A DNA stretch of 64,000 nucleotides from a virus, in the IMG/VR virus record IMGVR_UViG_3300046504_000032, positions 3,120 through 67,119 of that record; one strand, 5' to 3'. Position numbers and translations under genes: made by a program. The notes beneath the pieces were generated by a model. That model searched no databases, was not told the origin of the DNA, and worked only from the letters and a program-made list of their open reading frames with translations. The number at the start of each line of letters is the position of its first letter. The first letter of the stretch is position 1. This document shows, in pieces, positions 19,801 to 60,472 of this stretch.

Positions 19801-22800
19801 CTTACTGGTTTCGAAGTTAGCCATGTTACTGTCATAGATCAGATAAGGAGGATTTTCCTTTTCAAGTTTCAGGTTAAGGGCAGTTGTTTTTCCTGCACCG
19901 GTACCTCCGGCTGTCATTACAACATAATTATTCTGTTCACTTGCAGGTTCACCTTGTATCAGATCATCATACAGTTTCTTTGCAAAATCAGAAGCAGGGT
20001 CATGTACTGCCTGGGAGAATTCAGTCGGGTTATTGCGATAGTCAGGTGATAGCGACTTAGCATGATCACCAGATATCACATTCCCAAACTTACTAAGATA
20101 CTCAGCTTTGTATCTTTCATAGTCATCAGTCAGGGCTTTTGCGAACCTGTCGTGGACGATCCTGTGGATTCCTGTAAATTCCTGCTTACCTTCGCCTTGA
20201 GTTCTTTCAGGAGTTCCCTCTGCGCCTGCAGTATTGAGATTCCCTTTACCTCTGCCCTCTTTTGGACCAGTTGGTTGAATTGGTTTTTCAGTTGTTCCTT
20301 TGACATTTTCTAATGATTTTTTATAGGTTGCTTCATTATTTAACCATTCATTATTGAAATATTTACCGTCAATTTCCTTCCAGAGATCCAGGTCAACGGG
20401 TTTCATCGTGTTTGCCTTATCCCATCCCCACACCTTGAACTGATCTATCGGCATCTGCTTGATCTCACCTAATCCTCTCCACTTGGGTTCAAAATTTTGA
20501 AGATATCCTGCCCTTGCATCCCAATCACTTTCAAACCCTATCATTACCTTTGGCTCGTCATACTGTCCTGTATCAGGATTGATCTGATCAATGACGTAGA
20601 TATCCTGTCCTGGTTGTATATTGCCAAGATAAACATCCAAAGGTTCACCGTCAGGGGTAATTGTTCCGAGTATATGACCGTAATCATGGTTTAATGTCAC
20701 ACTCCATTTCTTACCACTTAGATCAGTCCCGGTCCTTATCATGCCCTTGGCTGTCTCAATGGAGATATCCATTCCAAGAATAGCGATATGCCCTTTCGGA
20801 TAAATGCCTGATTCTTTCTGAGCATCAGTAGGATTAGGTTCAACATCTTCCCGGGCTTCTTCGATCTCTCCCTTTATCTCATCTGCACTTTTTAGTCCCC
20901 CCGGGACCATCCTTGGTCCTTCATGTGTCTCATGTAGCAAGCGAGAATAGACTTTAAATAATTTCAGCATTGTAGGTTGCATCTCATCTGGCGAAGATGA
21001 TTGCCCTTTATAGAAAACATTTACTGAGGCAAAGTCAGGGTCCTCATCAACTTCAAACTTCCATCCCGCTTTCTCAACTCCGGATTCGATCTTTTTCATC
21101 AGGGCGATACCTTCTTCCCTGGTTTTAGGTTCGTCAATCTCTTGTTTAATGTCCTTCCAGAATCCCTCATAGTCAATCTTCGATTCAGCTTCCTCTTTTG
21201 CCAGTCTTGACATCTTGTCGAGAGGGGATTCTTCGGATGCAGGTATAAATCTTGGGTTATTATAAGCGTTCCAATCCTCGGGTCTATGCTGTACATCGGA
21301 ATCAGATATTAGCCTGAGTTTAGCCATACCTTTTTTGTCAGGTTCAATAACTTCATATTGTATGCCTGTGAACGTATCACGTATAAGATCACCTTTTTTG
21401 AAGTCCTTTGGATTTTGTTTCTCAATAGGTTTTGATGTAGGTTTTAACTTTTCAAGTATCTCTGTTAGTTTTGTGTTTTCTCCTTGATGTTCAATACCCC
21501 TACTGTCAAGTTCTCCGATTAATCTTGCAGCATAAGAAGATGGCAATGTTTTGACGAGTGCGCCTAGTTGATCTTTATGAAGTTCAATTTCTTTCTTGAT
21601 TGTTTCCATTGAAACATTCTCAGCATTAGAAACATCATCACGATTCATCCCGGGTCTCTCTGCTAGAATAGATTCTCTTACTGTTAATTTCTTCCCTTCT
21701 CTTTTCTTCAATACTGCAGCAAGTCTTTCTTTGCCAAGAGCTGAATTATCTTTTTGTAAGGATAGTAATTCATAATCTTTATTCTTTTCAGCATTATCAA
21801 TGATCTCTTGTTTCTGTCCTGCAGGAGTTTTTACAGTAGATATTACTTCCGGCTTCTCAATATTCTGTGTTACTATCTGCTGAATCTGTTTTTGATCCAT
21901 TCCGGAAATATCCTCATCACTATACCCAAGTCGTTTAAGTTTGGGCATTAAGAACTCCATTGGATTCAAGTTAATTATTGGTCCTTCCCTCCCCCCAATA
22001 ACAGGAGTAGCGCCTTCATGAGGCGCTTTCTCCTGCCCCCTCTCAGGCTTTGGTGCCTCGGCCTGAGCTTCCATTGGTTTTATATCGGGATAATATTTTT
22101 TTACCTCATCATAGATACCGGGATATTCTTTGAGTACTTCCGGAGGGACAGGTTTACCCTCTTTGATAGCCATTGCTACAGCGCCTTTATGACCGAACCA
22201 CCAAGGACCTACAGCTTTTCCTGATTCATCCCTCGGAGCCCAGGGCGACTTATAAGTGTCCTGATGCCATCCTGCTGTTGTCTTATCCTTCCATGCCTCA
22301 TATTGCTTCCCGGTCATCTGGTAGGGTTCTAAACCTTTGGGGTTTGTCTCTTTCAGATTTTTGGCTTCTTCAGCGGCTCTTTCTTCCTGGCTTGCAGGTT
22401 GCTCTTTCTCTTTGTTTTTTTTAACTGACTTTTCTTCCGTAACTGGTTTATTTTCAACAGAGGCACCCTTTTGGTCAGGGGTGACTTTAGGGGTGACTTC
22501 TGGTGTTAATGTCTTAATCTTATCATCGAGAGACTTCTGCAGATCGGGGTCAAGTATGATCTTTATTTTCTCAAGTGTCTTGAGTGATGAGGTATGGTTT
22601 ATTGCTCCCTCTATGGTAGAACGGTCAACCTCATCTTTCCCGATGAAGTATGACGTGACCATTTCCGGGAACTTCTTCTTGTACATCTTATCAAGTTCCT
22701 CGTCACCTTCAAATCTCAATCCATACAAGTCCTGTGGTGTCTCGGCTCCGATTATTGCGCCTTTGATATATCCTTTCGATACAGGGTTCCCGTCTTTCTC

Positions 22801-24732
22801 GTATATCGGAACGTCTGACTTGCGTACTTCTTTACCGTCAACCTTGACGGTTTCCTCTACGGGTTCCTCGAATTTGGCGTTTATATCCTTGAGTTTGTCC
22901 GGGGGAATTTCTATTGCTTCACCAAATTCTCCATTATCCTTAACCTCATTCACCTTGACGGTACCATCGAATCCTATCTCCTGCACCTCCCAATTCCGGC
23001 CCATGTAGGTTATCTCGTCCCCTACTTTTGCAGTCTTATGAGCGAGATCTTCATTAGCCTGTCTCTCGAGAGGGTCAATCGGTGCGCCAGTTTTTGGGTC
23101 TTTTATCGGTTCGTCTCCTGCGAATCCGGAGATATAACCCTTCTTTGCCCTGTAAGCATCGACCCCCATATCGACAAATTCCTGCGGGGTCATTGTCTTT
23201 TCAACCTTCCAACCATTGATAAACCGGCCTTCTCTGTCTATGATACGTACAAGTTTATCATTGACTATTATTGATCCGTCAACAGGATTACGTTCAATCC
23301 TGCTGAGTAAGGCGTATGTACCGTCATCAAGTACCTTAGAACCTTTCTGAAAATATCCCTTTCCGTCAACATCGGTCATCATGTTTACCGCTACCGGCTT
23401 ACCTGTCTTGGGATGAATCTCTGCCACTCTGTTCAGAAGGGAGGTCATTGTCCTTTCGGCATTATTGGTATATATCTCCTGTTCGATAACTGGCAATGCT
23501 TCCTGATTAGATTTCCACGCATCAAGAGCTTTCTCTCTCTCTCCATTGGTCATAGTGATCTGGTCAACGATATTTTCCCGGGCAATATCCTTAAAGTTCA
23601 TCTTACTGTCCATGACAGTTATCTTGTTTGGATCAGTTGGATGGTCCCCTACCTGTTCGTAAACTTTCCCGTCTTTATCCTGAATGATCGTTATTCCTGA
23701 TTTCTTGCGTCTCATGTAGTTGTAACTCTCATTCTGTGCTGCGGTTATACTACCAAGGAATGTGCCAAGGAACGCACCGTCCCGGAAGGACTTCAATCCA
23801 TCAGCAACGACATTCATAAGAGCGATCTTATCTTCCGGGTACTTGTTTAGGTTCTGCAGCATCTCCTGTGTCATAGTCATAACACTGAATGCTCCGCCTG
23901 TCTTGACTGCGTTCTTTCCTATTTTACCTGCCAGATTGAGATATTTTTGTGTTGCCCCTGGAACGTCTGCCAGGTATCTACGAAGAATATTTGATGCTAA
24001 TTCAGGATTTTCCCTGAGTACCGTTGAGGCAGCCGACCCTATCATTGAATTGACTGCCTTACCTCCGGCTCCTGCTACCTCTCCGGCAAGGTACATGATC
24101 AGTCCCGACCCAAGTCCAACAGCCTGTTTCTGAAACTCCGGTGTCTTGTGTCCTGTTTTTTCATCATAAAGTTCTGATTCGAGTATTGAGTTACCGTATG
24201 CACTTGTAGCGAAAGCAGCCATAGTCCCCTGTCCTATGATAGCAGGTATAGCAGCGAGAGAGGTACCCCCGGTAGCTAATGATGCAGCTGCAGACGCACC
24301 CATGCCTAATATCATTGGCATCCATGCACCTACTGAAGATAAGCCACTCTCGGTATAAATCTCATTATTCTTTTTTAGGTTCTCTCTTGCTTTTTCTTTC
24401 AGCACTTCAGATGCTATCATGCCATTCATCTGCCCTGTTCCCGGGAAACTGCCAGGCATTCCTACTATTGGCAGTATTTCTGCAAGGAATGACTGCAACC
24501 CTGATCCCATCTGTAACCAACCTTTTCTTGACTGTTCCCTGAACTTACTATCCTTGCTGAACATAAAAGGCCTCTCAACCCATTCATTATGCTGTGCTGC
24601 CTGTTCTGCTGTCTGCGGGTCAAAAGTAGAAGTAGGGAGTGGTGCTCCCGCTGTTTTTTTCTTCTGTATATCCGCTAATGACGGGAATCCTTTAGGTCCT
24701 GTCTGTAGGGTTTGATCTACTGTATCTGGCAT
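7894..24732 (-). CDS. Giant polyvalent virion/ejection protein (DarB-like methyltransferase-SNF2 helicase plus accessory domains)
   Basis: 5612 aa. Approximate domains: PPase-like 20420-20830; P-loop kinase AGGTGAGKTT near 19900; DUF1249-like 18590-18830; MTase VLESAGGIG and NVPFG 16440-17560; helicase VGTGKT/VDEAH/QRNGRILRQGN 13300-15150; HEVFAH metallopeptidase near 11860; LPD38-like C-terminus. Confidence 0.9.
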   Translation of the reverse strand: MPDTVDQTLQTGPKGFPSLADIQKKKTAGAPLPTSTFDPQTAEQAAQHNEWVERPFMFSKDSKFREQSRKGWLQMGSGLQSFLAEILPIVGMPGSFPGTGQMNGMIASEVLKEKARENLKKNNEIYTESGLSSVGAWMPMILGMGASAAASLATGGTSLAAIPAIIGQGTMAAFATSAYGNSILESELYDEKTGHKTPEFQKQAVGLGSGLIMYLAGEVAGAGGKAVNSMIGSAASTVLRENPELASNILRRYLADVPGATQKYLNLAGKIGKNAVKTGGAFSVMTMTQEMLQNLNKYPEDKIALMNVVADGLKSFRDGAFLGTFLGSITAAQNESYNYMRRKKSGITIIQDKDGKVYEQVGDHPTDPNKITVMDSKMNFKDIARENIVDQITMTNGEREKALDAWKSNQEALPVIEQEIYTNNAERTMTSLLNRVAEIHPKTGKPVAVNMMTDVDGKGYFQKGSKVLDDGTYALLSRIERNPVDGSIIVNDKLVRIIDREGRFINGWKVEKTMTPQEFVDMGVDAYRAKKGYISGFAGDEPIKDPKTGAPIDPLERQANEDLAHKTAKVGDEITYMGRNWEVQEIGFDGTVKVNEVKDNGEFGEAIEIPPDKLKDINAKFEEPVEETVKVDGKEVRKSDVPIYEKDGNPVSKGYIKGAIIGAETPQDLYGLRFEGDEELDKMYKKKFPEMVTSYFIGKDEVDRSTIEGAINHTSSLKTLEKIKIILDPDLQKSLDDKIKTLTPEVTPKVTPDQKGASVENKPVTEEKSVKKNKEKEQPASQEERAAEEAKNLKETNPKGLEPYQMTGKQYEAWKDKTTAGWHQDTYKSPWAPRDESGKAVGPWWFGHKGAVAMAIKEGKPVPPEVLKEYPGIYDEVKKYYPDIKPMEAQAEAPKPERGQEKAPHEGATPVIGGREGPIINLNPMEFLMPKLKRLGYSDEDISGMDQKQIQQIVTQNIEKPEVISTVKTPAGQKQEIIDNAEKNKDYELLSLQKDNSALGKERLAAVLKKREGKKLTVRESILAERPGMNRDDVSNAENVSMETIKKEIELHKDQLGALVKTLPSSYAARLIGELDSRGIEHQGENTKLTEILEKLKPTSKPIEKQNPKDFKKGDLIRDTFTGIQYEVIEPDKKGMAKLRLISDSDVQHRPEDWNAYNNPRFIPASEESPLDKMSRLAKEEAESKIDYEGFWKDIKQEIDEPKTREEGIALMKKIESGVEKAGWKFEVDEDPDFASVNVFYKGQSSSPDEMQPTMLKLFKVYSRLLHETHEGPRMVPGGLKSADEIKGEIEEAREDVEPNPTDAQKESGIYPKGHIAILGMDISIETAKGMIRTGTDLSGKKWSVTLNHDYGHILGTITPDGEPLDVYLGNIQPGQDIYVIDQINPDTGQYDEPKVMIGFESDWDARAGYLQNFEPKWRGLGEIKQMPIDQFKVWGWDKANTMKPVDLDLWKEIDGKYFNNEWLNNEATYKKSLENVKGTTEKPIQPTGPKEGRGKGNLNTAGAEGTPERTQGEGKQEFTGIHRIVHDRFAKALTDDYERYKAEYLSKFGNVISGDHAKSLSPDYRNNPTEFSQAVHDPASDFAKKLYDDLIQGEPASEQNNYVVMTAGGTGAGKTTALNLKLEKENPPYLIYDSNMANFETSKGRIEKALENGKEVDILYVWRDPFTAYIEGVIPRMKEERRSIGIDTHVKTSANSLANIRKIYDLYKDNDNVTFTFYDNDIQNEVQPESVFSHIPIDEADLKRRLQDEIKSLQQQGELTETEKSVLLEETRTGDELSLQQSAETGREQTQEINGGEKTAPAESVGSAEQQPSPKPEFAGESIEYRPKDGWETNLIKARDYASHLIDHSEINQLIKDNKLDWTNTESIVAAIKQKLGLKLVNDLFEGKPVLTPEQKELQKFKDAMPYTHFGQSVLLAHKQILKAIPILKSIKVGDYFKSGKRGDAIMPFVIEAQTLGSYHMLFPDPKAYRLIMEHNYIQEGDLMTDPRIDIAVYPSLDIIVPLNFEQSNPPIYQEFIAEGKVIDQKGMNDTLSFMKTWMNNLKNQGRTITESNRIKEETENGTESKSITSIENQASAIINQAENVADREQAGQISEEIDRQIAEIDSQLQLLGEYKIPEEYYRTHEYPHRGLEPIIKKDVTKFSKEIAKLLGWEHDTDRKGKKIEYSNVNLAPAGGDAHFILWKPGTDLGVYVSIPFNPTNEFAGDYSELWKIEGHGQGYGPILWRLTTKAKKYSGMNNQWIQADVTAGELARTIKKFADSYEKSTDKRNFDNINITHEKATTPLRDKGIRDTPGEGTPPMVGGVGPSETGGPVSSEQTPTLPELNGGQSGGEHTEINRSRETAQPGRGGDNTGLLSTDEGRGSSGVVERTQRTDTGNRTQPENLADRNFVITDEAFVPKGEFAKIRANISAIELVQKLEKENRNATPEEKDILAKYTGWGGLATVLDQGKWAEPRWHEEWHKKYGGYHKKLLSLLTPDEFNNAVNSTINAHYTSIPIIRQMWNLAEQLGFRGGNVLESAGGIGHFFGAMPGYLQDNSILKAYELDSITGRIMTKLYPQARVNVKGYELSNEPIASQDLIITNVPFGKTSPFDAKNQDISKFYLHNYFIAKGIRQLKPGGIGVFITSNSSLDSPASAKFREWVVTEGNADFVGAIRLPNNAFAENAGTEVTTDIVIFRKRIGDIISPNAKDFRITVPIGDAETKDGLPVKIEVNQYFAENPDNMLGKMMLAHEAGGGGLYSADRQTLAPIRGKDLITELATRIATMPKSIMETAENKPPEELIAANDEERNGTIVNRGGKIYEVVNGDLALTEWNDKTIKVKGKSYKTNKIADDYLKIKSLANDLITMEQSPDADPKVLETVRANLNKEYDGFFKSYGKINNNKALEFLEDDSEHNAVAALENVSHTSELDKNGRNIRKEFIDKSDIFTKRVNFPVIEPTTAGNVEDALNISISYRNAVDIPYMASILGMTEEQATQELLEEGLVFRNPATEQIEDKDTYLSGFVRTKYNTALEASKDNPLYLKNVEALKSVVPKDIPGQLVKFSLGTPWIPGDMVKQFVKDHLDVNATIEYSNATGHWIVRGHDGQYGAKNKTAGTEEFSGLELVEKSLNLRTPRVVRTSYDYVDGRRVKTEKVDIEATAQAQGKMDDIMDTFVNYVYDKPEYVEQIETVYNAKYNDFIEKNYNAPSFDHFPGASKDIKLYGIQRVGVMRSLKESTLLAMQVGTGKTFTMITTAMEMRRLKLAKKPMIVVQNSTLEQFSNSFRELYPAAKILVPPPLNKMKAEKRQLIFNKIAYGDWDSIIIPQSFLDFIPDDPARERAYIQERIAELQQVLDEVDDGSWNNPIASDLKKSIEALNEQMFKMDNPTKKKTKKVKDIARSNLSKETQLEKQAFRRKDDVRLFEKMGVDALFVDEAHAYKKLGFATALQNIKGIDTKGSKRAFGLYMKVKFVQEKMNGRNVILSTGTPISNTMAEVWTMMKYIAPEILKKHNINTFDQFASTFGSIEPSLEFTAAGKFKVVKRFKSYKNAPELMRLFRANSYVVLTEDVPEFKEAKTIPKLKDGKHTQIIIPQSEGVKTAMEKFKNILEAWEQLPGKEKRLQRHVPLVIFGRAKQAAIDLRLINSANYDDPGSKTNEVVKQVKRIYDETTSYKGTQLVFSDIFQSPDLGSTVPRFNLYEDIRDKLMKLGVPATEIVIIKDQSGGQREAIYDRVNKGEVRIVLGSTGKLGTGVNVQDLLKAIHHIDAPIRPMDFEQRNGRILRQGNQHADMGLPVEVVTYGVEKTLDATAFQRLDIKMKFINQMMKGDKLDREANDAADEEDATDMTFAQMMATLSGSQYAILHTQKMYELKKLQTGRRNYERGMIDAKKGLQNARTIVGYLTDALMDVKNATELIRKYFKPLEGKGEGTTSGLNIKSITFNGKQYQGEKLLEGFNLELTKMIDLFKAGVGENKTSILKINDIPVPIFLSYDGRNDRFVYQVEPVQSSSAEAKITGYCTSGAGFFQSLKIQFNNFLDGKLKDVEKRLAQHQNDIPTFENTLTKKFAQQEKLDNTEREVRDLEEKMKEETENGMNKNPKPIVTPTRDQKIAWLREQVSNPEHGEKTREILTDYIKQYDEAPLEATKDLILEEIASKSRMIKEKFDEIDASKDNLLDEDIEDSPEPSPSYMRRPKEPDLNDENMRPIWDNAQFPKYQATPGTFAGEEVAVMREHEMMRRAQIMSEYTGVPIIIVRTKQELPKHLVKDAIKRFGDLRKSEIPSVYDRANKKVYLVVEDNKSVSDLVSNMSHEVFAHYGLEALLGVEPYLRVLQLTYTGMSPVDVVELANRYNVPESDWKTVAEEYIGYIAGNGQINPNLWQRIIAYIRNLIRKILNISMSKSEIMALLKKAKDNLTNNKPEVTDYANIGDYLDALTAYSTRTGKAEGGFGYGIHASESRAIEEAIGKGNQDYRTYFGVAESQIGTKATGWIEKALANNDFDSNKALDYLESKMTKYQNFERHYRIVKDARNYLFDNEPKNPTAMYKVLVGKGKAPDELNFLSWDKPIDYDQQENIVNQLDAENKFDITVSGAFHSGEALYNKITDLYGSDREASLFLSRAGIDGMKKDQSMVIYDNTPVDVLNQIAYMRRPKSTFVGEHLANAGKVYTNQAETKRNWQETVNGIREYIQDNNLPVRKFEEEIIKRGGLQPNDAKPYRDISLSFGRQETLYKDFMKTKMKPIQESVAKIIKGGMSGENILPYIISKHAIERNMVFRAREIDEFIMKNPDATDQDIAELKEEIADKDYSGVMAFDVNDEFTNPDELAQTISDEFEEQVSKPLIDELWSNIHNASSAILDIWEAGQQLSPEQKQMYLEQFKYFVPLRGWREGAAKDLVYVKGEGFKKSLMHATGRKSLADNPLAYMQSVAFSAIGEQVDNEVKTSMLRLLMRNLQSADLYDLATVKKLYYIRVDLPDGTHEWEPTLDRPSQELFDSGEAVTKIYNEYQKLRVPKQAREHEVIVRRQGGDVVMIFKGKMLSVAQAMNKRNFMYHNIFSKVKDARTLNQAVTGLSYMNNFLKAAYTSWNIVFPFTNFLRDVQEASMTQLIRGDAGQKIVVNYHRAFPSIIRFLRDKLDMNNPDDVKLRDFYLTGGATGFTHLLSAEDLEKDLMDEINRMVGRGTVRGDIKHFMHESVQIISMWNQVFEDATRFSVYLTSIDLGKTKEEAASDAKEASVNFNRKGKSSKLYDSIYAFWNVAWQSLQKNFKLGKDYPKRFAAVASAFMALGFLEALLNHATDDQDPENDYYNINPYMRENYLVLPNLPRLISGESKGNKYLSIPLPQFWRGFKSIGSLAYDLTQGKTTVKEAITKAMLNFGSAMSPVDIGGFSKTGEFSLAPIVPTIIKPFYEIATNRNYMGYTIAREPFDKAQKKLLANSGLGKSNVNPAAKFFTDMLFRWGGGENATKYYIDKTGEEKKVPGFLDINPSFIEHLFKGYTGGSGAVFSDLITTISQALKPDQEVDFKNIPFVNKFLRETPESKWNIISDYYNLKDVVGVHKGLKRAYQQQAEAGGSTTGIEATEGSNYYQQYQDIVDSYDKDIKEISDQVDFTDVEGTKPIYDLMQQCIVDIKALKEQYKMK
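17574..17897 (-). CDS. Nested +1-frame gene inside the giant ORF (TnpV-like helical protein)
   Basis: 107-aa globular-looking ORF with its own TAACTTTG box (17923-17916) and AT-rich start. The host frame here is low-complexity linker. Confidence 0.65.
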   Translation of the reverse strand: MKKPQHLLEIKGFETPLARVHLQWLEEWDLPKLVDLYRQNKLQHYLNSMVDKAEANIQKLIAAGRQRNQAEEATIPDFLAPMRDEDPPEWSRELKGQIPEIERSLKT

Positions 24733-33259: not shown

Positions 33260-33550
33260 ATGTCATCTTATGTCATCCCAAGTAAGGAAATGGAGAAGAG
33301 ACCACACTCCAATGGAAAATGGGCGGGTGACTATGGGTCAAAACGACATAGAAACGACATCTAAATATTAGGTTACACACAGACTGTCAATGTATTACAG
33401 TTTTTATGTCATCAGGTGACAAAAGTGACATGAGGTAAAAAAGGGGTGACATTGTGATAGTTGATGTCACCCCCTGATGTTTTTGAGTGTTATATAGTTG
33501 ATAATAAGCAAGTGCACCCCCTGACATGAAAGATGACATTGAATGTCACC
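33260..33550. repeat. Array of TGACAT/ATGTCA motifs in both orientations
   Basis: About ten copies, including the inverted pairs GGGGTGACAT-N11-ATGTCACCCC and TGACATTGAATGTCA. Confidence 0.7.
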
Positions 33551-33595
33551 CTTCGGAGGATATTAACAGGCGTAAAAATAAATTGTTGTAAATTG

Positions 33596-33626
33596 TTTGG
33601 ATATTAACAAAGAATGCCTATATTTG
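33596..33626 (+). promoter_or_regulatory. Consensus Bacteroidota promoter for the early operon
   Basis: TTTG-N19-TATATTTG. Confidence 0.85.
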
Positions 33627-33648
33627 ACCTGTGAGAAACATCTGACAA

Positions 33649-33894
33649 ATGGAGAAAAAAGACCTAACACACAGACACATAGCGAGATACGGAAGGTTAG
33701 ACAGGATGAATCTGGTAAAGGAGATCATGAGTACGTTTGGATCGTATGATGGGTTGATGTGTTATTATCGTTACAGGATCAGGGAGGAATACGCAAATAT
33801 GTTTGGATGTCCGATAATATATGTTAAGGGGAGGGATTTGATTGAAGTAGAGGCGAATATCAGTAAGTTACTAAGAGATATAAAGTTATTTTAA
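33649..33894 (+). CDS. Early hypothetical protein
   Basis: First ORF after the promoter; CATCTGACAA directly before the ATG. Confidence 0.7.
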   Translation: MEKKDLTHRHIARYGRLDRMNLVKEIMSTFGSYDGLMCYYRYRIREEYANMFGCPIIYVKGRDLIEVEANISKLLRDIKLF

Positions 33895-33915
33895 TATTCA
33901 CCAAATCATCTGACA

Positions 33916-34296
33916 ATGAGTAATTACGCAACATTAACGAGTAAACACCCTGAACTGTTTGAATGCTTCTTTGCATTCTCTAATCAGCAGTTTGAGGAAG
34001 GTAAGATCAAGGCTAACATTGGGGATAAGAAGATTCTCTCCGGTGGTAGTGGTTTGTATGGTACAAAAGAAGGTATCACGAAATTACTTGCCGATTATGA
34101 CGCAAGAGACAAAGAGATTGCGGATACATGCAGCCCGCAGGACGTGTACAAGTATGAATTTGACAATCATGAGTGCAGTTATACGAATGAAGATACAGCT
34201 GCAATGGAGATTGTGGTCCGTATCTTTGGTAAAGAGAAGGCAAAGAGTGTGAAGCGTAGATTCGCATACGTTGAAGTTGAAGCAATAGAAATATAG
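33916..34296 (+). CDS. Early hypothetical protein
   Basis: FFAFSNQQFEEG...YEFDNHE pattern; motif at the start. Confidence 0.8.
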   Translation: MSNYATLTSKHPELFECFFAFSNQQFEEGKIKANIGDKKILSGGSGLYGTKEGITKLLADYDARDKEIADTCSPQDVYKYEFDNHECSYTNEDTAAMEIVVRIFGKEKAKSVKRRFAYVEVEAIEI

Positions 34297-34319
34297 TATT
34301 CATTTAATCTGACAAATCA

Positions 34320-34514
34320 ATGACAAACGTAGAAATGGTAAGAAACGGAAACATCCTGACGATAGTAGTTGATCTATCAGTCAAAGGAGAGATGAGTAAA
34401 TCGGGCAAGAGTATAGTTCTGGCCTCCACACTTGGGAATAAGAAGATAGAGGCAGACGATAAACTGGACAACGGACAGGCTATCTTTATAGGACTGAATG
34501 TTTACAAGCAGTAG
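34320..34514 (+). CDS. Small conserved beta-rich protein
   Basis: LTIVVDLS...SKSGKSIVLASTLGN...IGLNVY. Confidence 0.8.
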   Translation: MTNVEMVRNGNILTIVVDLSVKGEMSKSGKSIVLASTLGNKKIEADDKLDNGQAIFIGLNVYKQ

Positions 34515-34589
34515 CTTTAAAGGTCTCAAGCCCTAAAATGATGAGAGCCGGGGATCATACCCCGGTAAATCAACTAAAGCATCTGACAA

Positions 34590-34850
34590 ATGACAAACGG
34601 AATTATCAAAACAGGAGACACGATCTTATGGAGACCATGTTTCAACACACAGCCTCCGGTAGAGGCAGAAATAACAGGCATTGAGATATGCGAGAGACCA
34701 AGAAGCAAATATGGTAAGCCAGTTAGTTGGATACCGGCAGACGCAAAGGATTTCGCAGTATTCAGCCTATCCAATCATCACTGGTGTTATGGAGAACAGG
34801 TTGAGACCTTAGACGAACTGATATTAGATTACGAACTCTATTATTCATAA
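34590..34850 (+). CDS. Early hypothetical protein (SH3-like)
   Basis: IKTGDTILW start; motif before the ATG. Confidence 0.7.
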   Translation: MTNGIIKTGDTILWRPCFNTQPPVEAEITGIEICERPRSKYGKPVSWIPADAKDFAVFSLSNHHWCYGEQVETLDELILDYELYYS

Positions 34851-35165: not shown

Positions 35166-35184
35166 TCATTAATACATCTGACAA

Positions 35185-35697
35185 ATGAACAAAAATGTAC
35201 AAACAGAGCTCCTGCTCGCAAGAAAAGACGGTGTATCGCATTGTAATACGTGCGATGCATCAACTTGGGACGGACAGTTCCACGATGCAATGTTGCTATT
35301 GCAGGCTAACCCCCCTGAAGATATTCAGGTGCGCTGCGTCATCAGACATGGCATACACGAATGGACACTCATTGACCTGAAACCGGATTCAAGGAAGGAG
35401 AACCCTGTTAATATCACCACTGAGGAAATAGACCGGATGACCGACAGACGCAAACCAATGGAAGTATTCGGTGCCTATCAGCACTTCCTCTATTACTTCG
35501 ATCAGGTACAGTATGAGAAAGAGGAACCAAACGGAGGACTGACAAACCATTTCGTTGAGAAACTCACAGGCCTGAGAGCAAGACATAACGACTACAACTC
35601 AATAGAGGTACTGGTCCGTTGGGTGCAGGAAATGAGCCAACACAATCAGGCAGACCTGTTAGAATACATCCTCAAACATCATTCTAACAAATGGTAG
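35185..35697 (+). CDS. Early hypothetical protein
   Basis: Motif before the ATG; operon packing. Confidence 0.7.
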   Translation: MNKNVQTELLLARKDGVSHCNTCDASTWDGQFHDAMLLLQANPPEDIQVRCVIRHGIHEWTLIDLKPDSRKENPVNITTEEIDRMTDRRKPMEVFGAYQHFLYYFDQVQYEKEEPNGGLTNHFVEKLTGLRARHNDYNSIEVLVRWVQEMSQHNQADLLEYILKHHSNKW

Positions 35698-37411: not shown

Positions 37412-37501
37412 CCAAGTCCCGGAAGCGATATCTGCAATGGCAATGGAAAAGAAGATTGTGTAAGCTACACGAAACATTTGATAAACTAACAGACATCGAC
37501 A

Positions 37502-37741
37502 ATGACAGGGCACAAAGTAAATCTTAAAGGCAGGCTCCGGCAGCAGGTATTTTATGATGCTGTGCAGTTTGTTATAGACAAGATCGGTAAGGAAACAGTC
37601 ACCGGTCACTTTATCTTCATGTATAAAGGCAAAGAAGAATTCCCCATGAAGAAGGTCAGGTTGGGGGTTAATGAGGCAGCCCTGCTCAGTAACATCAAGA
37701 TCAGAACTATTGGAAAAACTAAGTATAACGAAACCGAGTAA
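37502..37741 (+). CDS. Hypothetical protein
   Basis: ORF abutting the ATPase gene. Confidence 0.6.
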   Translation: MTGHKVNLKGRLRQQVFYDAVQFVIDKIGKETVTGHFIFMYKGKEEFPMKKVRLGVNEAALLSNIKIRTIGKTKYNETE

Positions 37742-40769: not shown

Positions 40770-41510
40770 ATGAACTTACGGATATTAGGCAGCAGCAGTA
40801 AAGGGAACTGCTATTTATTAGTAGCGAAGGATCAGGTATTGATCATAGAAGCCGGTGTGAAACTTATTGAAGTCAAGAAGGCGCTATCGTTCAGGACTGA
40901 GGACATTGTTGGCTGCCTGATATCCCACGTTCATAATGACCATTCAGGATATATCAAGGAATACGCAGACGCAGGGATTACCATACTCACAAGCGGAGTT
41001 GTCAGATGCTCCAAGATCTTGAGCGAGTATGATAACAGAGTGAAGGTGGTATATCCTGAACATGGTTATAATATTGGATCATTCAAGATCATTCCATTCG
41101 AGGTACAGCACGATGTACCATGTTTGGGCTTCTTAATCAGTCACCCGGAATCCGGGAATATCATGTTTATAACTGATACTTATATGTGCGAGTACACCTT
41201 TCCGCACCTTAACCAGGTTATCATAGAGTGCAATTACTCTGATGATATCCTTGAACACAACATCATTTACAAGGGCCTCAATCCGCTGATGAGGCCAAGG
41301 CTACTCTATAGTCACATGGAGCTTGAAAGCTGCAAGAACGTGCTGAGAAGCCTTGATTTGACCAATGTGGTCAATATAGTACTTGTTCACCTATCCGATG
41401 GCAATTCAAACGAACAGCGATTCGTCTCCGAGATACAACAAGAATTCTGCAAGACTACTATTGCAGCCAATAAAGAGGTAGATATAAGTTTTAACTTAAA
41501 TCCCTATTAA
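40770..41510 (+). CDS. MBL-fold metallohydrolase (exonuclease partner of RecT)
   Basis: LGSSSKGNCY, SHVHNDH, HD, FITDT, IECNY, HLS; ATG 40770 preferred. Confidence 0.9.
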   Translation: MNLRILGSSSKGNCYLLVAKDQVLIIEAGVKLIEVKKALSFRTEDIVGCLISHVHNDHSGYIKEYADAGITILTSGVVRCSKILSEYDNRVKVVYPEHGYNIGSFKIIPFEVQHDVPCLGFLISHPESGNIMFITDTYMCEYTFPHLNQVIIECNYSDDILEHNIIYKGLNPLMRPRLLYSHMELESCKNVLRSLDLTNVVNIVLVHLSDGNSNEQRFVSEIQQEFCKTTIAANKEVDISFNLNPY

Positions 41511-50125: not shown

Positions 50126-50590
50126 ATGCACGAAGACATTTTTAGATTCAGAAAACTGGTCAAGATCTTGACCGAACAAAAGAGGTGGACTGTAAAGAAG
50201 GTCTGCATGGAGGTAGATATCTCTACCGCAACCTTGAAAAAGCTACTTGGTTTCCCTCCGGATGAACTTAAACCCCAGGCATCAGTCCTTGGCAAGGTAC
50301 AGAACTTCATTAAGAAGCATATCATTGACCTTGATTACCCTGATCTTGCTTTAGATGCAGGTGGTTCTATAACTCATACAGAACAAATAAGACTCAGGGT
50401 CAAACCGGGAGTTATGGAGAGGAGACAGAGAGAACTTCAAGAGAGAGGGGAACTTATAGGAGAACTACCTCCGGTAAAAGGGTTAGATCCTCCCGAGAAG
50501 GTCCTTGATTTTTGGGGATACCTTAACGCAGCCCTACAGACTGCACCAGAACACGTATCCATTACAGTTCAAATACATAGCCGGATATGA
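50126..50590 (+). CDS. HTH domain protein
   Basis: WTVKKVCMEVDISTATLKKLL. Confidence 0.6.
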   Translation: MHEDIFRFRKLVKILTEQKRWTVKKVCMEVDISTATLKKLLGFPPDELKPQASVLGKVQNFIKKHIIDLDYPDLALDAGGSITHTEQIRLRVKPGVMERRQRELQERGELIGELPPVKGLDPPEKVLDFWGYLNAALQTAPEHVSITVQIHSRI

Positions 50591-51105
50591 ACCAAGATCA
50601 AAGAAAATTCCTGCTCGCCAGAGTTGAAAAGACTCACAAGGAGGAACTAAGGAAGCTCTCTGAGGAGAAACCATCAGAACCCTCCCTGAATAACTACCTT
50701 ATCGCAGCCATACTTGATAACAGCATTGAACTGAAAAGTTTGGATGATATAAAGAGTTCGATTCGCAAGAAAGTACTTGCACTTGGACCGCAAGAAACAC
50801 TTACCTCATCGCCTCATTCGTGGAGGGATAACCATGCGAGTTCGCATGAGATAACCCTAACTGCCGGAGTTATATTCGTTTATCCAAAGGCTTACCTTGA
50901 TGCTTATGCTGAATGGGAGGCTAAGGTAAAAGAGGTCGATCAGCGTATTGTAAAGCTGAATGCTACTACCGAGACCCTGCTCCTGAAAATTCAGATCGGG
51001 AGCAATACAAGTCTTGACCGGCTTGTAGATAGTGTGGATAATATGATTGATCTGACCCTGATGAATAATAAACTTATGCTTACTGACGGAAAGGAGGAGA
51101 AATGA
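50587..51105 (+). CDS. Hypothetical helical protein
   Basis: ATGA overlaps. Confidence 0.75.
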   Translation: MNQDQRKFLLARVEKTHKEELRKLSEEKPSEPSLNNYLIAAILDNSIELKSLDDIKSSIRKKVLALGPQETLTSSPHSWRDNHASSHEITLTAGVIFVYPKAYLDAYAEWEAKVKEVDQRIVKLNATTETLLLKIQIGSNTSLDRLVDSVDNMIDLTLMNNKLMLTDGKEEK

Positions 51106-51419
51106 TAAAAAAATGGATTGACAAACTAATGTTCAAGCTCGGGTATTTCCCGAGACGAAGGATAGAGGGTAAGATGCTTATAGTGAATGAGGAGAAATAC
51201 GAACTTGTGATCGTACATGACAATAAGGTAATTTCTCAAAGAGACATTATGGCTTCCTCTATCCCCTGGGAAATACATCGACAGAATATGGAATCCGAAA
51301 TGATAAAAGAAATTGGAACGCATATATGGAACATGGGAGAATTGGAATATGAAGCACCCAATAAGGACTTCTTTCATAGACTAAACTTCCGTATTTGTAT
51401 TGCAATTCGCAAAAAATGA
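51102..51419 (+). CDS. Hypothetical protein
   Basis: ATGA overlap. Confidence 0.7.
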   Translation: MIKKWIDKLMFKLGYFPRRRIEGKMLIVNEEKYELVIVHDNKVISQRDIMASSIPWEIHRQNMESEMIKEIGTHIWNMGELEYEAPNKDFFHRLNFRICIAIRKK

Positions 51420-51447
51420 GTATCTTGCACCGTAACCAATACAGTAA

Positions 51448-51861
51448 ATGATGAAAATTATCTTTATCCTTTTACTTCTACTGGTATCTTACAGGGCCTT
51501 TGCGCCTATTTCCCCTTGTATAACCATCGTCAAGCCGGAGGTCATCGACCCCTACAAGCAGCTCATCTATGCTATTGGCATGGTGGAAGGGAAATTAGAT
51601 ACCCTTGCGATTAATCCCGTTGAACAGGCCTACGGATACTTTCAAGTACGGGCCATTCGACTGGAGGATTATAACGCAAGAACTGGTAGTAATTATTCCT
51701 TACAAGACATGCTCGTTTACGAGAAAGCCGAGAGAGTATTCAGGTATTATGCCTCTCAGATCGGATTCAAGGACCCGGGCAGAATTGCAAGGAGTTGGAA
51801 TGGTAGTGGTCCTAAAACTTGGGATTATTGGAAGAAAGTGAGAAATTATTTAATTATCTAA
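51448..51861 (+). CDS. Secreted lysozyme-fold protein (lytic transglycosylase-like)
   Basis: Signal peptide, AIGMVEG catalytic Glu, AYGYFQV, IARSWNG. Confidence 0.75.
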   Translation: MMKIIFILLLLLVSYRAFAPISPCITIVKPEVIDPYKQLIYAIGMVEGKLDTLAINPVEQAYGYFQVRAIRLEDYNARTGSNYSLQDMLVYEKAERVFRYYASQIGFKDPGRIARSWNGSGPKTWDYWKKVRNYLII

Positions 51862-51871
51862 TAATTATTTC

Positions 51872-51879
51872 TACCTTTG
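51872..51879 (+). promoter_or_regulatory. -7 promoter box (TACCTTTG) for the small RNA
   Basis: TAnnTTTG with no ORF before the terminator. Confidence 0.7.
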
Positions 51880-51882
51880 TAC

Positions 51883-51960
51883 TTCATTACTGACTTTACG
51901 AAGTCAAACATTGTCAGATGTTGTAGTGAAAGAAAACCGGGTCCCAAAGCCCGGTTTTCT
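51883..51960 (+). ncRNA. Structured antisense small RNA
   Basis: Closing stem TTCATTAC/GTAGTGAA, hairpins TGACTT-TACG-AAGTCA and AACAT-TGTCAG-ATGTT; complementary to five early-gene start regions. Confidence 0.7.
51931..51960. terminator. Bidirectional terminator between the convergent arms
   Basis: Perfect 11-bp stem AGAAAACCGGG/CCCGGTTTTCT. Confidence 0.8.
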
Positions 51961-51996
51961 GCATTATTACCATGAGTGGGGATATCTCCCCTAAGA

Positions 51997-52848
51997 TTAA
52001 GGATCGGTAGCAGTTTCTGTATCTGAGTCGTCATTAAAGAACGGAGTGGCCCGGTACGACTTCATGCTCTGAAAATAACTCATCCTGAGATCTGAGATAG
52101 CATCTTTCAGTAATGCATCCTCTACTTTATAATCTTCCATGAACCGGTTGATCAAGTACCAATCCCGGAGAACGGTACCGATGAAACACTTCTCAAATAG
52201 AGCGTCAATGCCGAGTAATACATTGGTATCAAACTTACTCACGTCCAAAGCAGAATAGATCAGGATATAATTCTCTGTCTGAGCTGATACTGCATACTCC
52301 AAGCCGGTTATGTCACCACTAAAGGCAGCATCAATGACAAATTCAGTTCCGGTATTTGAAACTATCGTTGCTTCTTCGTTTTCCAACAGACCAGGTGAAG
52401 TAATAACCAGTTTCATCCCTGCATACTGGTTTGTTGTCATTGCCAATGAACTATCTGTAACAGTAAGCCCATCTACACTCACAGATTCTACAGCGCTTGC
52501 AAACTCCGGATCCCCGAATGGCACATTAAACCTGAATGCACTATTGATAGATTTGGAGAACCCTGATATCTCTTTGAATATCTTTGCAGATCCGGACTGT
52601 AGGAAGTCGAGAAACTCTACTCGTTCATCTTCCGTTATCTGGAATGCCTCAAGTTGAGAATTCCCCTGTTGGTCTTTCGCTAACTTGCCACGTAGCGCAC
52701 TACGCCTCTTTATTTTCTCAAACAATGCTTCCACCGGGAAAGCAAATAACAACAGGTAGGTATCGCCTACATTCCCGGCTCCCACGTCTGCAAGAAAATC
52801 CTCCAGGTTATAATAGAGTAAAGAATCGGCATTTAAAATATAGGTCAT
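51997..52848 (-). CDS. Probable structural protein (head-tail adaptor-like with beta insertion)
   Basis: Acidic helical protein with a central beta-rich module (NQYAGMKLVITS...IVSNTGT). Confidence 0.5.
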   Translation of the reverse strand: MTYILNADSLLYYNLEDFLADVGAGNVGDTYLLLFAFPVEALFEKIKRRSALRGKLAKDQQGNSQLEAFQITEDERVEFLDFLQSGSAKIFKEISGFSKSINSAFRFNVPFGDPEFASAVESVSVDGLTVTDSSLAMTTNQYAGMKLVITSPGLLENEEATIVSNTGTEFVIDAAFSGDITGLEYAVSAQTENYILIYSALDVSKFDTNVLLGIDALFEKCFIGTVLRDWYLINRFMEDYKVEDALLKDAISDLRMSYFQSMKSYRATPFFNDDSDTETATDP

Positions 52849-53384
52849 GGTTTAAAGAATTTATAGATTTTGTAACCCAGGAAAAGGAACGCTAAGGTAA
52901 AAATCAGTATGCAGATATTCCTGCAGGCCTTATAGAACGGAGGAATATACTTGACCGGAGGAAGTGTTATCGTCTGTTTAGAACTCTGGTATAAAGATTC
53001 CCAATGCTTACTTACTTTATCCGCGCTATCAAGTTTAAATGTGATTACCTGGTCTTTCTGTTCAAGTTGCATTTTAAGTTTTGAGTTCTCTATCCATGCC
53101 TGAGCTCTGGCATAAGTATTTTCAAGGACCATTGGGGGGACATTGATTTTTTCCGGAATCCCTGGTATTGGTTTCTCCTTCCAGATCGTATCTCCGGGGA
53201 TTTTGTAAGGGACCAACCTGTCTCTATAGATAATTGAATCCTTTATGACCAGGCTGTCATGATTGATCGTTACAGTCTGCGGAGGGAACTTCGCATTACA
53301 TTTCCTTTGGGTGACACAACTAATGGGTAATACCAAGAGGTAAAGAATGGGAATCATAAATGCCATTAAAAGTCTGCTTTTCAT
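52845..53384 (-). CDS. Lipoprotein with C-terminal TM, candidate unimolecular spanin
   Basis: Signal ending PISC, beta-rich middle and C-terminal TM; follows the endolysin. Confidence 0.6.
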   Translation of the reverse strand: MKSRLLMAFMIPILYLLVLPISCVTQRKCNAKFPPQTVTINHDSLVIKDSIIYRDRLVPYKIPGDTIWKEKPIPGIPEKINVPPMVLENTYARAQAWIENSKLKMQLEQKDQVITFKLDSADKVSKHWESLYQSSKQTITLPPVKYIPPFYKACRNICILIFTLAFLFLGYKIYKFFKP

Positions 53385-53395
53385 TTAAGTTGTCT

Positions 53396-53992
53396 TTATG
53401 GTTTATAACAAAACTCAGATCTCCCGATCTTCTTTAAATATTCTGGAATATCGAAGTTAGGACAATTCTTTTGATTATTCAACTGATAGTGTCCTGCTAC
53501 TTTGATTTGCTTATGATAACCTGTCTCTGTCAGAACATAGTTAAGGAGCGCCTCAATCTGTGCCTCTGTGTATAAAATCACCTCCGATCCCTTCATCGGG
53601 GGTTGTGTCAATGGTTTATTTACCCTCCCTCCTTCCAGGCATACATGGACGCCATTATAATTGTACCCCGGTTGGCCCCAGGTTTTCTCTGAGGAGGTAA
53701 TCTCATCATCGTCAACGAATGGAGTAATATTCTCTACCGAACCATCACGATAGATTAGATCTCTGTAGCCGAAACGGTCCCATCCTCTGCCCTGGAGTTG
53801 ACTTATCTCTTTCCCATTGATAATGTCATGAGGCAGCGCAAGCCGGTTATGGTATATCTTCCCGAGATAAGTTACTGTCCCGTCCGGATTATTGCATGGG
53901 CCCATGTGCCACTCCTTGAGAATTTCTTTCGAGAGAGGAAATGAAGGGTACGTATCGCTACAATGTATGACCAGGAATTGATACTTTGCCAT
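53396..53992 (-). CDS. N-acetylmuramoyl-L-alanine amidase endolysin
   Basis: VIHCS, GW...GY, VCLEGG, GHYQ...KNCP (T7 lysozyme-type Zn ligands). Confidence 0.9.
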   Translation of the reverse strand: MAKYQFLVIHCSDTYPSFPLSKEILKEWHMGPCNNPDGTVTYLGKIYHNRLALPHDIINGKEISQLQGRGWDRFGYRDLIYRDGSVENITPFVDDDEITSSEKTWGQPGYNYNGVHVCLEGGRVNKPLTQPPMKGSEVILYTEAQIEALLNYVLTETGYHKQIKVAGHYQLNNQKNCPNFDIPEYLKKIGRSEFCYKP

Positions 53993-59397: not shown

Positions 59398-59824
59398 TTT
59401 ATCTTCTTAACTCCTATTTTCAAACTATCAAATGTTATCTTGGTATGTAAGGAATCATTAGCGAACTTGGCTCGTTGTTTTTTTTTAACTCATAATTCTC
59501 CATTTTCAGTCCTTCAAAGTATTTCATAAAGCTGTCTGTCTTGGTAAGATTATCCCTCCAATAAAGAATTACCGATTTCTGCAAAGCATTATGAGCGGCA
59601 GCATAGTTATCGACCTTTCTGTTATACCTCATTTGCCTTACCGCAATGGAGTCCAATTTAGTATCCATATTCTTTACGATAATCTTTAGATCGCCTGTTT
59701 CATTGGCTATATCTTCCTGTTTCCCCACCCAAGATGAAACCGCCCAAGCAGTACCTCCCACAAAAGCTATAGCCGATACAATACCCATAAAATAACCAAT
59801 ATATTTCATTAATGTTTTAAACAT
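59394..59824 (-). CDS. Membrane-anchored coiled-coil protein with short (stop 59435) and -1 frameshifted (stop 59394) forms
   Basis: N-terminal TM and an A9 run; the -1 frame ends KIGVKKIK. Confidence 0.7.
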
Positions 59825-60472
59825 TTACGCTACCTTAAGTCCTCTAAAATTATTCTTATTTCCCTTATTCCATGGAGTCGCTCCCTCTCTGCTTGGGGGT
59901 TTTATTCCATGCTGTATATTATATTCTCTTTGTTTCTGTTTAGTTTTTTCAGATGATCTCTGCCCTTTATTCCAAGCAGGTTGACCTAAGTGTTTTTCTC
60001 TATTTTTCCTTATAGATTCCAGTGAAGCCTTTTTGCCTTTTCTCCCAGAAGGTTTCCCCTTTCTGCTCATTTTAGCCAATGCCTCTTTAGAATAATTTCT
60101 ATGCTTACCCTTAAACGGAGATGCTATTCCTATATGAGATTTCCTGTTTTTTTCTACTATTTCTTTTGATCGTTTTATTCCTATATTACTATTGGCTATT
60201 AATCTTATATTAAACCAAGGATTTAACAAATCAATAAAATATTGTTCATTATTTATTATACTACTCTTTTCACATTCTAACAAAATCAAAAATGACAAAT
60301 CATCTATACCGTATTTATCATAATGTCGTTGAAGTTTAATTGAATGATGATTTCCTTTCTTTAATGAACTCAAATGACAGCGCCATCTTTGCGTAATATT
60401 TATAGCACTCCCAATATAACACCTATCGGGTTTTGTCTTAGATTGTATTTTATAAATTCCACTTATTTTCAT
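59825..60472 (-). CDS. GIY-YIG homing endonuclease with NUMOD3-type repeats
   Basis: SGIYKI...YIGSA...RW..H, EQYFID, PWNKG repeats; ATG 60472 preferred. Confidence 0.92.
   Translation of the reverse strand: MKISGIYKIQSKTKPDRCYIGSAINITQRWRCHLSSLKKGNHHSIKLQRHYDKYGIDDLSFLILLECEKSSIINNEQYFIDLLNPWFNIRLIANSNIGIKRSKEIVEKNRKSHIGIASPFKGKHRNYSKEALAKMSRKGKPSGRKGKKASLESIRKNREKHLGQPAWNKGQRSSEKTKQKQREYNIQHGIKPPSREGATPWNKGNKNNFRGLKVA

Follow-up and report, generated by a model that had tools for sequence, protein, structure and literature searches.

A predicted small RNA that probably turns down five or six early genes sharing a start-codon tag in a Bacteroidota-type phage

The DNA described here, referred to below as the window, is a stretch of 64,000 nucleotides (nt) covering bases 3120-67119 of the IMG/VR virus record IMGVR_UViG_3300046504_000032 of an uncultured phage; the record is 67,119 bp long and rated 100% complete. 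Two convergent operons of the window are separated by a gap of 135 nt (51862-51996), and this gap holds a compact unit (51872-51960) with a promoter-like box, a segment free of conserved open reading frames (ORFs) and a terminator. The unit is predicted to encode a small RNA (sRNA), the second hairpin of which is the reverse complement of a word, here called the start tag, that stands just ahead of the start codon in five early genes (ATG at 33649, 33916, 34320, 34590 and 35185); five or six early genes would probably be turned down by this RNA. The features at the locus are the following (protein lengths in amino acids, aa).

51448-51861, + strand: gene of a 137-aa protein, upstream border of the gap.
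51849-51879, + strand: putative Bacteroidota-type promoter of the small RNA (TTTA, 19 nt, TACCTTTG), with the -7 box at 51872-51879.
51884-51960, + strand: predicted small RNA of about 75 nt without a conserved ORF; its 3' end is the U-run after the terminator stem.
51883-51890/51923-51930, + strand: outer stem, from the minimum-energy fold.
51891-51906, + strand: hairpin 1 (UGACUU-UACG-AAGUCA), sequence variable and fold kept, from the fold and the homologues.
51907-51922, + strand: hairpin 2 with the seed (AACAUU-GUCA-GAUGUU), antisense to the start tag, from the fold and the homologues.
51931-51960, + strand: bidirectional intrinsic terminator (A-run, GC stem CCGGG.../...CCCGG, U-run), from sequence and fold.
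51997-52848, - strand: gene of a 283-aa protein, downstream border of the gap.

The promoter was read against the TTTG/TANNTTTG consensus, which was revised to TAHHTTTG with the G at -5 by Baez 2019 (PMC6847099, in the text accessible to us); the G of the box would place the 5' end of the small RNA at about 51884. The minimum-energy fold of 51883-51960 is a three-way junction followed by the terminator, with a free energy (dG) of -32.9 kcal/mol compared with -13.3 +/- 2.9 for shuffled sequences (z = -6.72), and none of the 200 shuffles folded equally well. The promoter-like box, ORF-less unit, three-way junction and terminator reported in a preliminary description of this DNA are confirmed. 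The same description had assigned the letters UGUCAG to the loop of a hairpin: the hairpin stands, whereas the loop of 6 nt does not, since hairpin 2 in the minimum-energy fold has a 6-bp stem and a 4-nt loop, GUCA. A simple terminator scan did not list the terminator at 51931-51960 because its rule requires at least 5 T in 8. Regarding known RNA families, Rfam matched only a tRNA-Met and a twister-P3 ribozyme in the whole window at the gathering threshold, and a search of 51800-52020 with E up to 10 yielded 15 weak matches (best 20.7 bits against a cut-off of 40 bits), with C4 not among them.

The start tags and the promoter in front of them are listed next; complementarity refers to the small RNA, and ddG is the net binding energy from cofolding (kcal/mol).

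33596-33626, + strand: early promoter (TTTG, 19 nt, TATATTTG), canonical, preceding the first tagged gene.
33637-33651, + strand: tag copy 1 and the ATG of an 81-aa gene; 33637-33648 complementary (12 nt); ddG -3.4.
33907-33918, + strand: tag copy 2, including the ATG of a 126-aa DUF7659 gene; 12/12 complementary; ddG -13.5.
34306-34322, + strand: tag copy 3, AATCTGACAA, 4 nt 5' of the ATG of a 64-aa gene; 34307-34315 complementary (9 nt); ddG -8.9.
34580-34592, + strand: tag copy 4 and the ATG of an 86-aa gene; 34580-34589 complementary (10 nt); ddG -9.7.
35174-35187, + strand: tag copy 5 and the ATG of a 170-aa gene; 35174-35184 complementary (11 nt); ddG -13.3.
37494-37504, + strand: degenerate tag copy CATC-GACAATG, lacking 1 nt, on the ATG (37502) of a 79-aa gene; ddG -8.4.

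The coordinates and match lengths of these five sites, and the gapped copy before the ATG at 37502, had all been given correctly in the preliminary description. With the start placed by the G of the -7 box at -5 (PMC6847099, accessible text), transcription from the early promoter would begin near 33631 and leave an 18-nt leader that is mostly tag; the remaining copies sit on internal cistrons. The tag is separated from the ATG by 0-1 nt in four of the five copies of the window, and the predicted duplex includes the AUG of two targets and spans positions -12 to -1 in the others.

Several counts set this pairing apart from the background of the genome. In the whole record there are four exact copies of the 10-mer CATCTGACAA on the + strand, all of them right before an ATG, and two on the - strand, while the reversed pattern, used as a control, is found on neither strand. 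Perfect complements of at least 9 nt to the 50-nt 5' domain of the small RNA are present in 5 of the 73 start regions of the window; for 3000 random 50-mers that avoided start regions the mean was 0.32, and a fraction of 0.0013 reached 5. An unbiased scan with 30-nt sliding windows on both strands returned two trans loci that reach five start regions, namely the RNA unit and 40981-41025, the latter inside a hydrolase gene and not kept in the relative G001 described below. When the 73 start regions were ranked by predicted duplex, six of the top seven belonged to tagged early genes. In cofolding with intramolecular structure included, the six tagged starts had net binding energies between -3.4 and -13.5 kcal/mol, and ten neighbouring untagged starts had 0 to -2.3 kcal/mol.

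Searches with the topoisomerase-like early protein as query recovered 11 related viral loci. The closest relative, G001 (72,897 bp, with terminal repeats), shows 73% identity in this protein and also encodes a homologue of the 137-aa protein (59% identical), directly after which a homologous unit is located. A third copy lies on L132, a metagenome contig of 1.5 kb that carries the C-terminal part of a 137-aa protein homologue (75% identical). In the window phage, G001 and L132 the unit lies 10-17 nt past the stop codon of the last + strand gene, and the genes downstream differ in all three; the unit therefore travels with the end of the + operon. Reading frames that open at the AUG of the small RNA are short and unlike among the three homologues, as read by eye. 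An ORF of 17 codons on the minus strand after the motif was considered and rejected, as G001 does not preserve it and has no ATG after the motif.

A TAHHTTTG box followed by TA is kept in 3/3 homologues (TACCTTTG in the window, TATCTTTG in G001 and TACTTTTG in L132), while the flanking non-coding bases around it vary; in L132 the upstream element is TTTG, 20 nt before the box. Stable folds are predicted for all three units (dG -33 to -38, z -4.5 to -6.5), and the terminator is kept in each, its consensus fold having 12 predicted pairs of which 3 are changed on both sides with pairing kept. The three-way junction is common to the window and L132, and G001 forms hairpin 1 and then a nested hairpin 2 (CGCUAU-U-CGUC-CGUCA-GAUG-U-GUAGUG), followed by an A-rich linker and the terminator. 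Hairpin 1 reads GUUGGG-UUCCC-CCCAAC in L132 and GGAGC-GACAA-GCUCC in G001; these sequences are unrelated and always form a hairpin. Consensus folds from MAFFT alignments (of all three, and of the window with L132) gave poor pair counts for the 5' domain because indels make MAFFT misalign hairpin 1, and single-sequence folds were relied on.

Conservation of sequence centres on the seed, and hairpin 1, the outer stem and the terminator vary with their pairing kept. Hairpin 2 of L132 is identical to that of the window (16/16), with a changed outer stem and a different terminator; in G001 the 5' arm has gone from CAUU to CGUC and still pairs with the unchanged GAUG, and the inverted repeat in the DNA is lost. 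Nucleotide identity between the window and L132 was 73.7% over the gene end and box and 84% over hairpin 2 and the linker, and blastn detected no similarity between them over hairpin 1. The run GTCAGATG is invariant in 3/3 homologues and is the only invariant run between box and linker; it makes up 8 of the 12 invariant columns from the box to GTGA. A seed fixed in sequence within a molecule otherwise fixed in shape is the pattern expected of a base-pairing RNA.

The location of the unit 10-17 nt past the last + strand stop in all three phages, together with the frequency of the word TANNTTTG, would also suit a structured 3' untranslated region of an early or middle operon, with stability hairpins and the terminator, in which case no independent RNA is made and GUCAGAUG serves as a protein-binding or processing site whose likeness to the antisense of the tag is accidental. 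This explanation is regarded as quite unlikely: it does not account for a box at the same place in 3/3 homologues amid varying flanks, or for a conserved run that coincides exactly with the antisense of a tag also kept in G001, and the segment would in any case still be transcribed and could pair likewise.

Regarding the tags of G001, four exact copies of CATCTGACAA were found, on the early strand only and each right before an ATG, and in addition one AATCTGACATG (spacing 0-1 nt in four of the five). The preliminary description had named a relative that keeps the CATCTGACAA motif without a complementary RNA as counting against its reading; G001 keeps both the tag and the unit with GUCAGAUG, an outcome in favour of that reading. 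The 170-aa and 86-aa proteins of the window have tagged counterparts in G001, and no counterpart between the phages was found for the 81-, 126- and 64-aa proteins of the window or the 82- and 74-aa proteins of G001. The tagged genes being partly non-homologous, the tag is maintained independently of the coding sequence and is therefore selected for itself. The complementarity has been re-tuned: the seed of the window pairs with AACAUCUGACAAUG, and that of G001, GUCAGAUGUGU, with ACACAUCUGAC, a word contained in two of its four tags. The complement has moved a few bases upstream in G001, and the duplex there ends 5 nt before the AUG. The count of start regions is similar to that of the window, with complements of at least 9 nt in 5 of 82 (null fraction 0.003).

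These data bear on two further explanations. A phage DNA-binding protein might recognise CATCTGACAA either way round, the copy at 51911 being one more site; the DNA of hairpin 2 is indeed an inverted repeat (AACAT N6 ATGTT), and TGACA/TGTCA words recur in the divergent control region at 33400-33560. This is held to be very improbable in view of the fixed spacing to the ATG, the copies on internal cistrons without promoters, the single orientation of all early-region copies and the loss of the inverted repeat in G001, where RNA pairing is kept. The other is chance, that is, a repeated start-site word of which one reverse copy happens to fall in a terminator-proximal hairpin. A second reverse copy inside a gene at 40999 is in line with it, and 9-mers complementary to A-rich start regions are not rare; it is nevertheless the least credible of the readings considered here, because no part of the unit is better conserved than the seed in three phages that share just 59-75% identity in the flanking protein, and because the null fractions are 0.0013 (window) and 0.003 (G001).

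Further relatives of the unit were sought in several ways. A blastn search of 50500-53500 against the phage collection gave no match. The hairpin 16-mer had 55 exact matches in viral contigs, none of them related to the window by blastn; the linker 16-mer had 23, of which only G001 was real. A degenerate seed-plus-linker pattern yielded 12 matches in viral contigs, only G001 being real, and two in genome contigs, both by chance, and the 283-aa neighbour protein as query found no relative. With the 137-aa protein, one viral locus was found (G001) and four with an alignment of 14 sequences, of which L136-L138 are without the unit; at the protein level, 13 closer homologues (P0002-P0014) show 64-71% identity. 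The metagenome search gave 25 loci, of which L133 and L134 end inside the 137-aa gene and were dropped; among the 23 examined, the unit occurs only in L110 (the G001 contig) and L132. Counts of start-tag k-mers in the loci of 12 other relatives revealed no tag with more than 3 copies.

As a separate observation, the gene of a homologue of the 137-aa protein (51% identical) in L138, from a more distant phage, is followed by a different hairpin-plus-terminator unit (10333-10480) containing UUUUUUCAUAGUUAAU. This word looks antisense to a generic start region, and no repeated tag was seen within 14 kb.

The genome surrounding the unit is organised in two blocks. The + strand block (about 33.6-51.9 kb) starts with small early genes and continues with recombination and replication genes, among which topoisomerase-like, SbcC-like, RecT-like, DnaC-like loader and Rha/Ant-like regulator proteins are encoded. 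The - strand block holds lysis and structural genes, including those of an amidase-like protein (below the Pfam cut-off) and of tail-like proteins. A single ORF of 5,612 codons at 7894-24732 (- strand) encodes a giant virion-type protein, and 5,421 codons are found at the counterpart position of G001. A search of the whole record for an integrase or resolvase found none, and no lysogeny module was found.

Shine-Dalgarno (SD)-like words precede 8 of 73 starts, which is the random level (10.4%), and the leaders contain 43% A; the absence of SD pairing assumed in the preliminary description is thereby upheld, and Bacteroidota do not use SD (PMC6847099, accessible text). A distant homologue of the 137-aa protein is labelled as coming from an Odoribacter metagenome-assembled genome. 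The lack of SD enrichment, the A-rich leaders, the promoter words and this label together fit a host of Bacteroidota type.

Two observations in the early region stand on their own. A twister-P3 self-cleaving ribozyme (RF03154) was identified at 34513-34581 on the + strand (45.9 bits against a cut-off of 39.9, full length 1-73); it lies in a gap of 75 nt that separates two early genes, and its 3' end adjoins tag copy 4 (34580). If the ribozyme cleaved itself, the polycistronic early mRNA would be severed just upstream of a tagged start. Ribozymes are reported, in a paper said to date from 2026, to aid translation initiation in RNA viruses. On 11 related loci (L062-L072) Rfam matched no family at gathering score. 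The divergent control region that precedes the early promoter (33400-33560) is dense in direct and inverted GTGACA/TGTCAC words (GGTGACA, GGGGTGACAT, ATGTCACCCCC, GACATTGAATGTCACCC), which are candidate operator or origin repeats.

On balance, we lean towards reading the unit as the gene for a trans-acting phage sRNA that masks tagged initiation sites and acts as an early shut-off timer. Pairing of the hairpin 2 seed of one RNA with the early start-site tags, as the preliminary description had proposed, is supported by conservation, statistics and predicted duplexes; from these we infer that the unit is transcribed, where its 5' end lies, that pairing occurs in vivo, and the direction and timing of the effect. 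An RNA of about 75 nt (51884-51960) would be made from its own host-type promoter (TTTA, 19 nt, TACCTTTG), and the shared bidirectional terminator would end it and close both convergent operons. The element GUCAGAUG(U) is formed by the loop and 3' arm of hairpin 2, and the GUCA loop with the 3' arm would nucleate pairing with CAUCUGAC. The seed would then pair with the tag (A)CAUCUGACAA(A)UG, which occupies -12 to +3 in five or six small early genes of the operon that begins at 33631; the resulting duplexes of 9-12 bp would lie over the start codon or immediately 5' of it. Where the host does not use SD pairing, this is the stretch of mRNA that the 30S subunit has to hold, and binding should therefore block initiation; it may also expose the mRNA to decay. 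Compact and strongly folded, the RNA would accumulate during infection and thus shut off the tagged early set. Of the two roles offered in the preliminary description, a temporal switch is considered more likely and RNA-based immunity less so, because no integrase or resolvase was found in the whole record; a timer of early genes is therefore likelier than lysogenic immunity.

The following points weigh against this sRNA reading. The seed is mostly base-paired within hairpin 2, with just GUCA exposed in the loop, and the tagged starts are no more open than others (unpaired probability 0.43-0.68 for tagged and 0.42-0.75 for untagged starts). The word TANNTTTG is found 74 times in the window, where 54.8 are expected, which makes the box alone weak evidence, and no obvious -33 element was seen by eye in G001. 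Homologues of the unit number three including that of the window, and by contig prefix G001 and L132 come from one metagenome. The signal in G001 is weaker: neighbouring untagged controls reach a ddG of -9.9, and in the unbiased scan the sRNA locus falls outside the eight best 30-nt windows, the top one of which matches 7 start regions, is antisense to the giant virion gene and is surely a chance site. In the window phage, a second 10-nt anti-tag (TTGTCAGATG on the + strand) lies at 40999-41008 on the - strand, inside a metal-dependent hydrolase gene, and would be carried on the same long + strand mRNA. It was rejected as a second regulator and is judged to be chance because it is inside the hydrolase gene and is not kept in G001.

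The last of these points concerns G002, a relative of 78,044 bp (94% complete, 69% identity in the topoisomerase-like protein) that lacks the 137-aa gene. It carries a different and stronger tag, AAGTAGTTATGA or (A-rich)CAAGTAGTTATGA, on at least 14 early genes (about 63.3-72.1 kb of the reversed record), and throughout its 78 kb no antisense of at least 10 nt was found outside the opposite strand of the tags themselves. An anti-tag RNA is therefore not required for start tags to exist, and the primary role of the tag may be something other than that of an sRNA target. A separate feature of G002 is a 9-nt word, CATAACTAC, in the leader of about 110 nt of its first early gene, which could pair in cis with the gene's own tag and AUG; as a sign of a trans sRNA in G002 it was rejected, this sole non-coding match being within chance expectation and possibly forming a cis hairpin.

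The RNA may also be real and pair with the tags to some other end, such as double-strand-specific cleavage that separates cistrons, stabilisation or activation of the tagged mRNA, or titration of a factor that reads the tag; the tag itself would then be first of all a translation element private to the phage, recognised by a protein or the ribosome. The strong tag on at least 14 genes of G002 without antisense RNA fits such an outcome, as does the G001 duplex that ends 5 nt before the AUG, and tags on internal cistrons of one operon, one of them after a twister ribozyme, suggest that mRNA processing matters. We consider this rather unlikely, given that the duplexes of the window cover the AUG (two targets) or -12 to -1, which is the classical geometry of an initiation block, and that no candidate tag-binding protein was found, the neighbouring proteins being without family matches.

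Should the shut-off by a trans-acting sRNA prove true, a trans-acting phage RNA would control a regulon of the phage's own early genes through a shared start-codon tag, which would add a new design to temporal control and be the first example among Bacteroidota phages. To our knowledge, the known phage antisense RNAs act on a single neighbouring target, and the usual chaperones of sRNA biology are lacking in Bacteroidota. Translation initiation signals are poorly understood in this phylum. The pair of tag and anti-tag would offer a compact orthogonal expression switch for Bacteroidota, and the finding would supply a concrete partner for start-associated repeats, a question open in the Cluster K mycobacteriophages since 2011 (PMC3203893, accessible text). 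As a broader proposal, put forward tentatively and with more doubt than the sRNA itself, start tags and an anti-tag sRNA may form a translation addressing system private to the phage, in which an RNA encoded at the far end of the genome switches the set off and the word and its mirror change in step from lineage to lineage; the reverse start-associated sequence (SAS) of Cluster K may be explained in the same way. Tagging a start codon with a short word would be possible because the host ribosome needs no SD site there.

Among known systems, the c4 RNA of P1/P7 (immI; Rfam C4) and the CI RNA of P4 are small structured phage RNAs in which short exposed segments pair with the phage's own mRNA and shut down downstream genes. 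The c4 RNA is released by cleavage from the transcript that also carries its targets, which are two sites in a single operon; in P1 it pairs at the ribosome-binding region, whereas P4 CI causes termination and not a translation block. The likeness drawn in the preliminary description holds for the logic, a structured phage-encoded RNA that pairs with the phage's own mRNA, and not for family membership, as no Rfam match (C4 included) was obtained; the small RNA described here also differs in having its own promoter about 18 kb from its targets, which are five or six tagged start sites. Phage T4 shuts off early genes by means of proteins, the translational repressor RegA and the endoribonuclease RegB, which act through a feature common to the initiation regions of these genes; the shut-off of an early set through a shared start feature is alike, and the proposed reader here is an RNA.

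The sar RNA of P22, OOP, aQ and PAK_P4as15 are phage antisense RNAs that act at or near a start site and reduce translation (PMC12197685, accessible text). In contrast to these, which are encoded in cis opposite a single target, the RNA described here would be encoded in trans and address several targets through a seed of about 9-12 nt. A literature search, which included the accessible text of PMC12197685 and left supplements and subscription journals outside its coverage, found no phage sRNA aimed at a shared start tag.

The nearest analogue is the SAS of Cluster K mycobacteriophages (Pope et al. 2011, PMC3203893, accessible text), an asymmetric repeat 3-7 bp before start codons with the consensus GGGATAGGAGCCC, which contains the SD core. 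Its partner was left open there as 'RNA or protein', and it was described as still functionally untested in 2025 (PMC12699233, accessible part). SAS copies and the tags share a single orientation, an association with many non-structural genes of unrelated families, and lineage specificity (PMC3203893). SAS has a single reverse copy per genome away from gene starts, compared with two in the window phage, one of them inside a gene.

As a side check, the Mycobacterium phage Anaya (JF704106) was searched over 25000-60835 for the SAS consensus with up to 2 mismatches, which gave 16 copies on the + strand and 1 on the - strand, the latter in a non-coding gap of 385 nt between gp96 and gp97. The + strand of this gap is predicted to form two strong hairpins (dG -60, z -4.6), the second of which displays CCUCCUAUCC in a loop of 10 nt. 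The hairpin segment (59799-59909; L150 34800-34910) is present in 133 Mycobacterium phage records; in seven aligned records compensatory change affects 6 of the 34 predicted pairs, and six of the records keep the loop. In Amohnition the hairpin loop has drifted and the SAS copies have not, which argues against strict coupling. The hairpin is a possible anti-SAS RNA, to be taken as a lead and not as a result.

The system of the window phage differs from SAS in two respects: the accessible text of PMC3203893 proposes no RNA partner, and the tag described here, CATCTGACAA(A)TG, is without the SD core and stands 0-4 nt from the start, which makes it an analogue of SAS and not a member.

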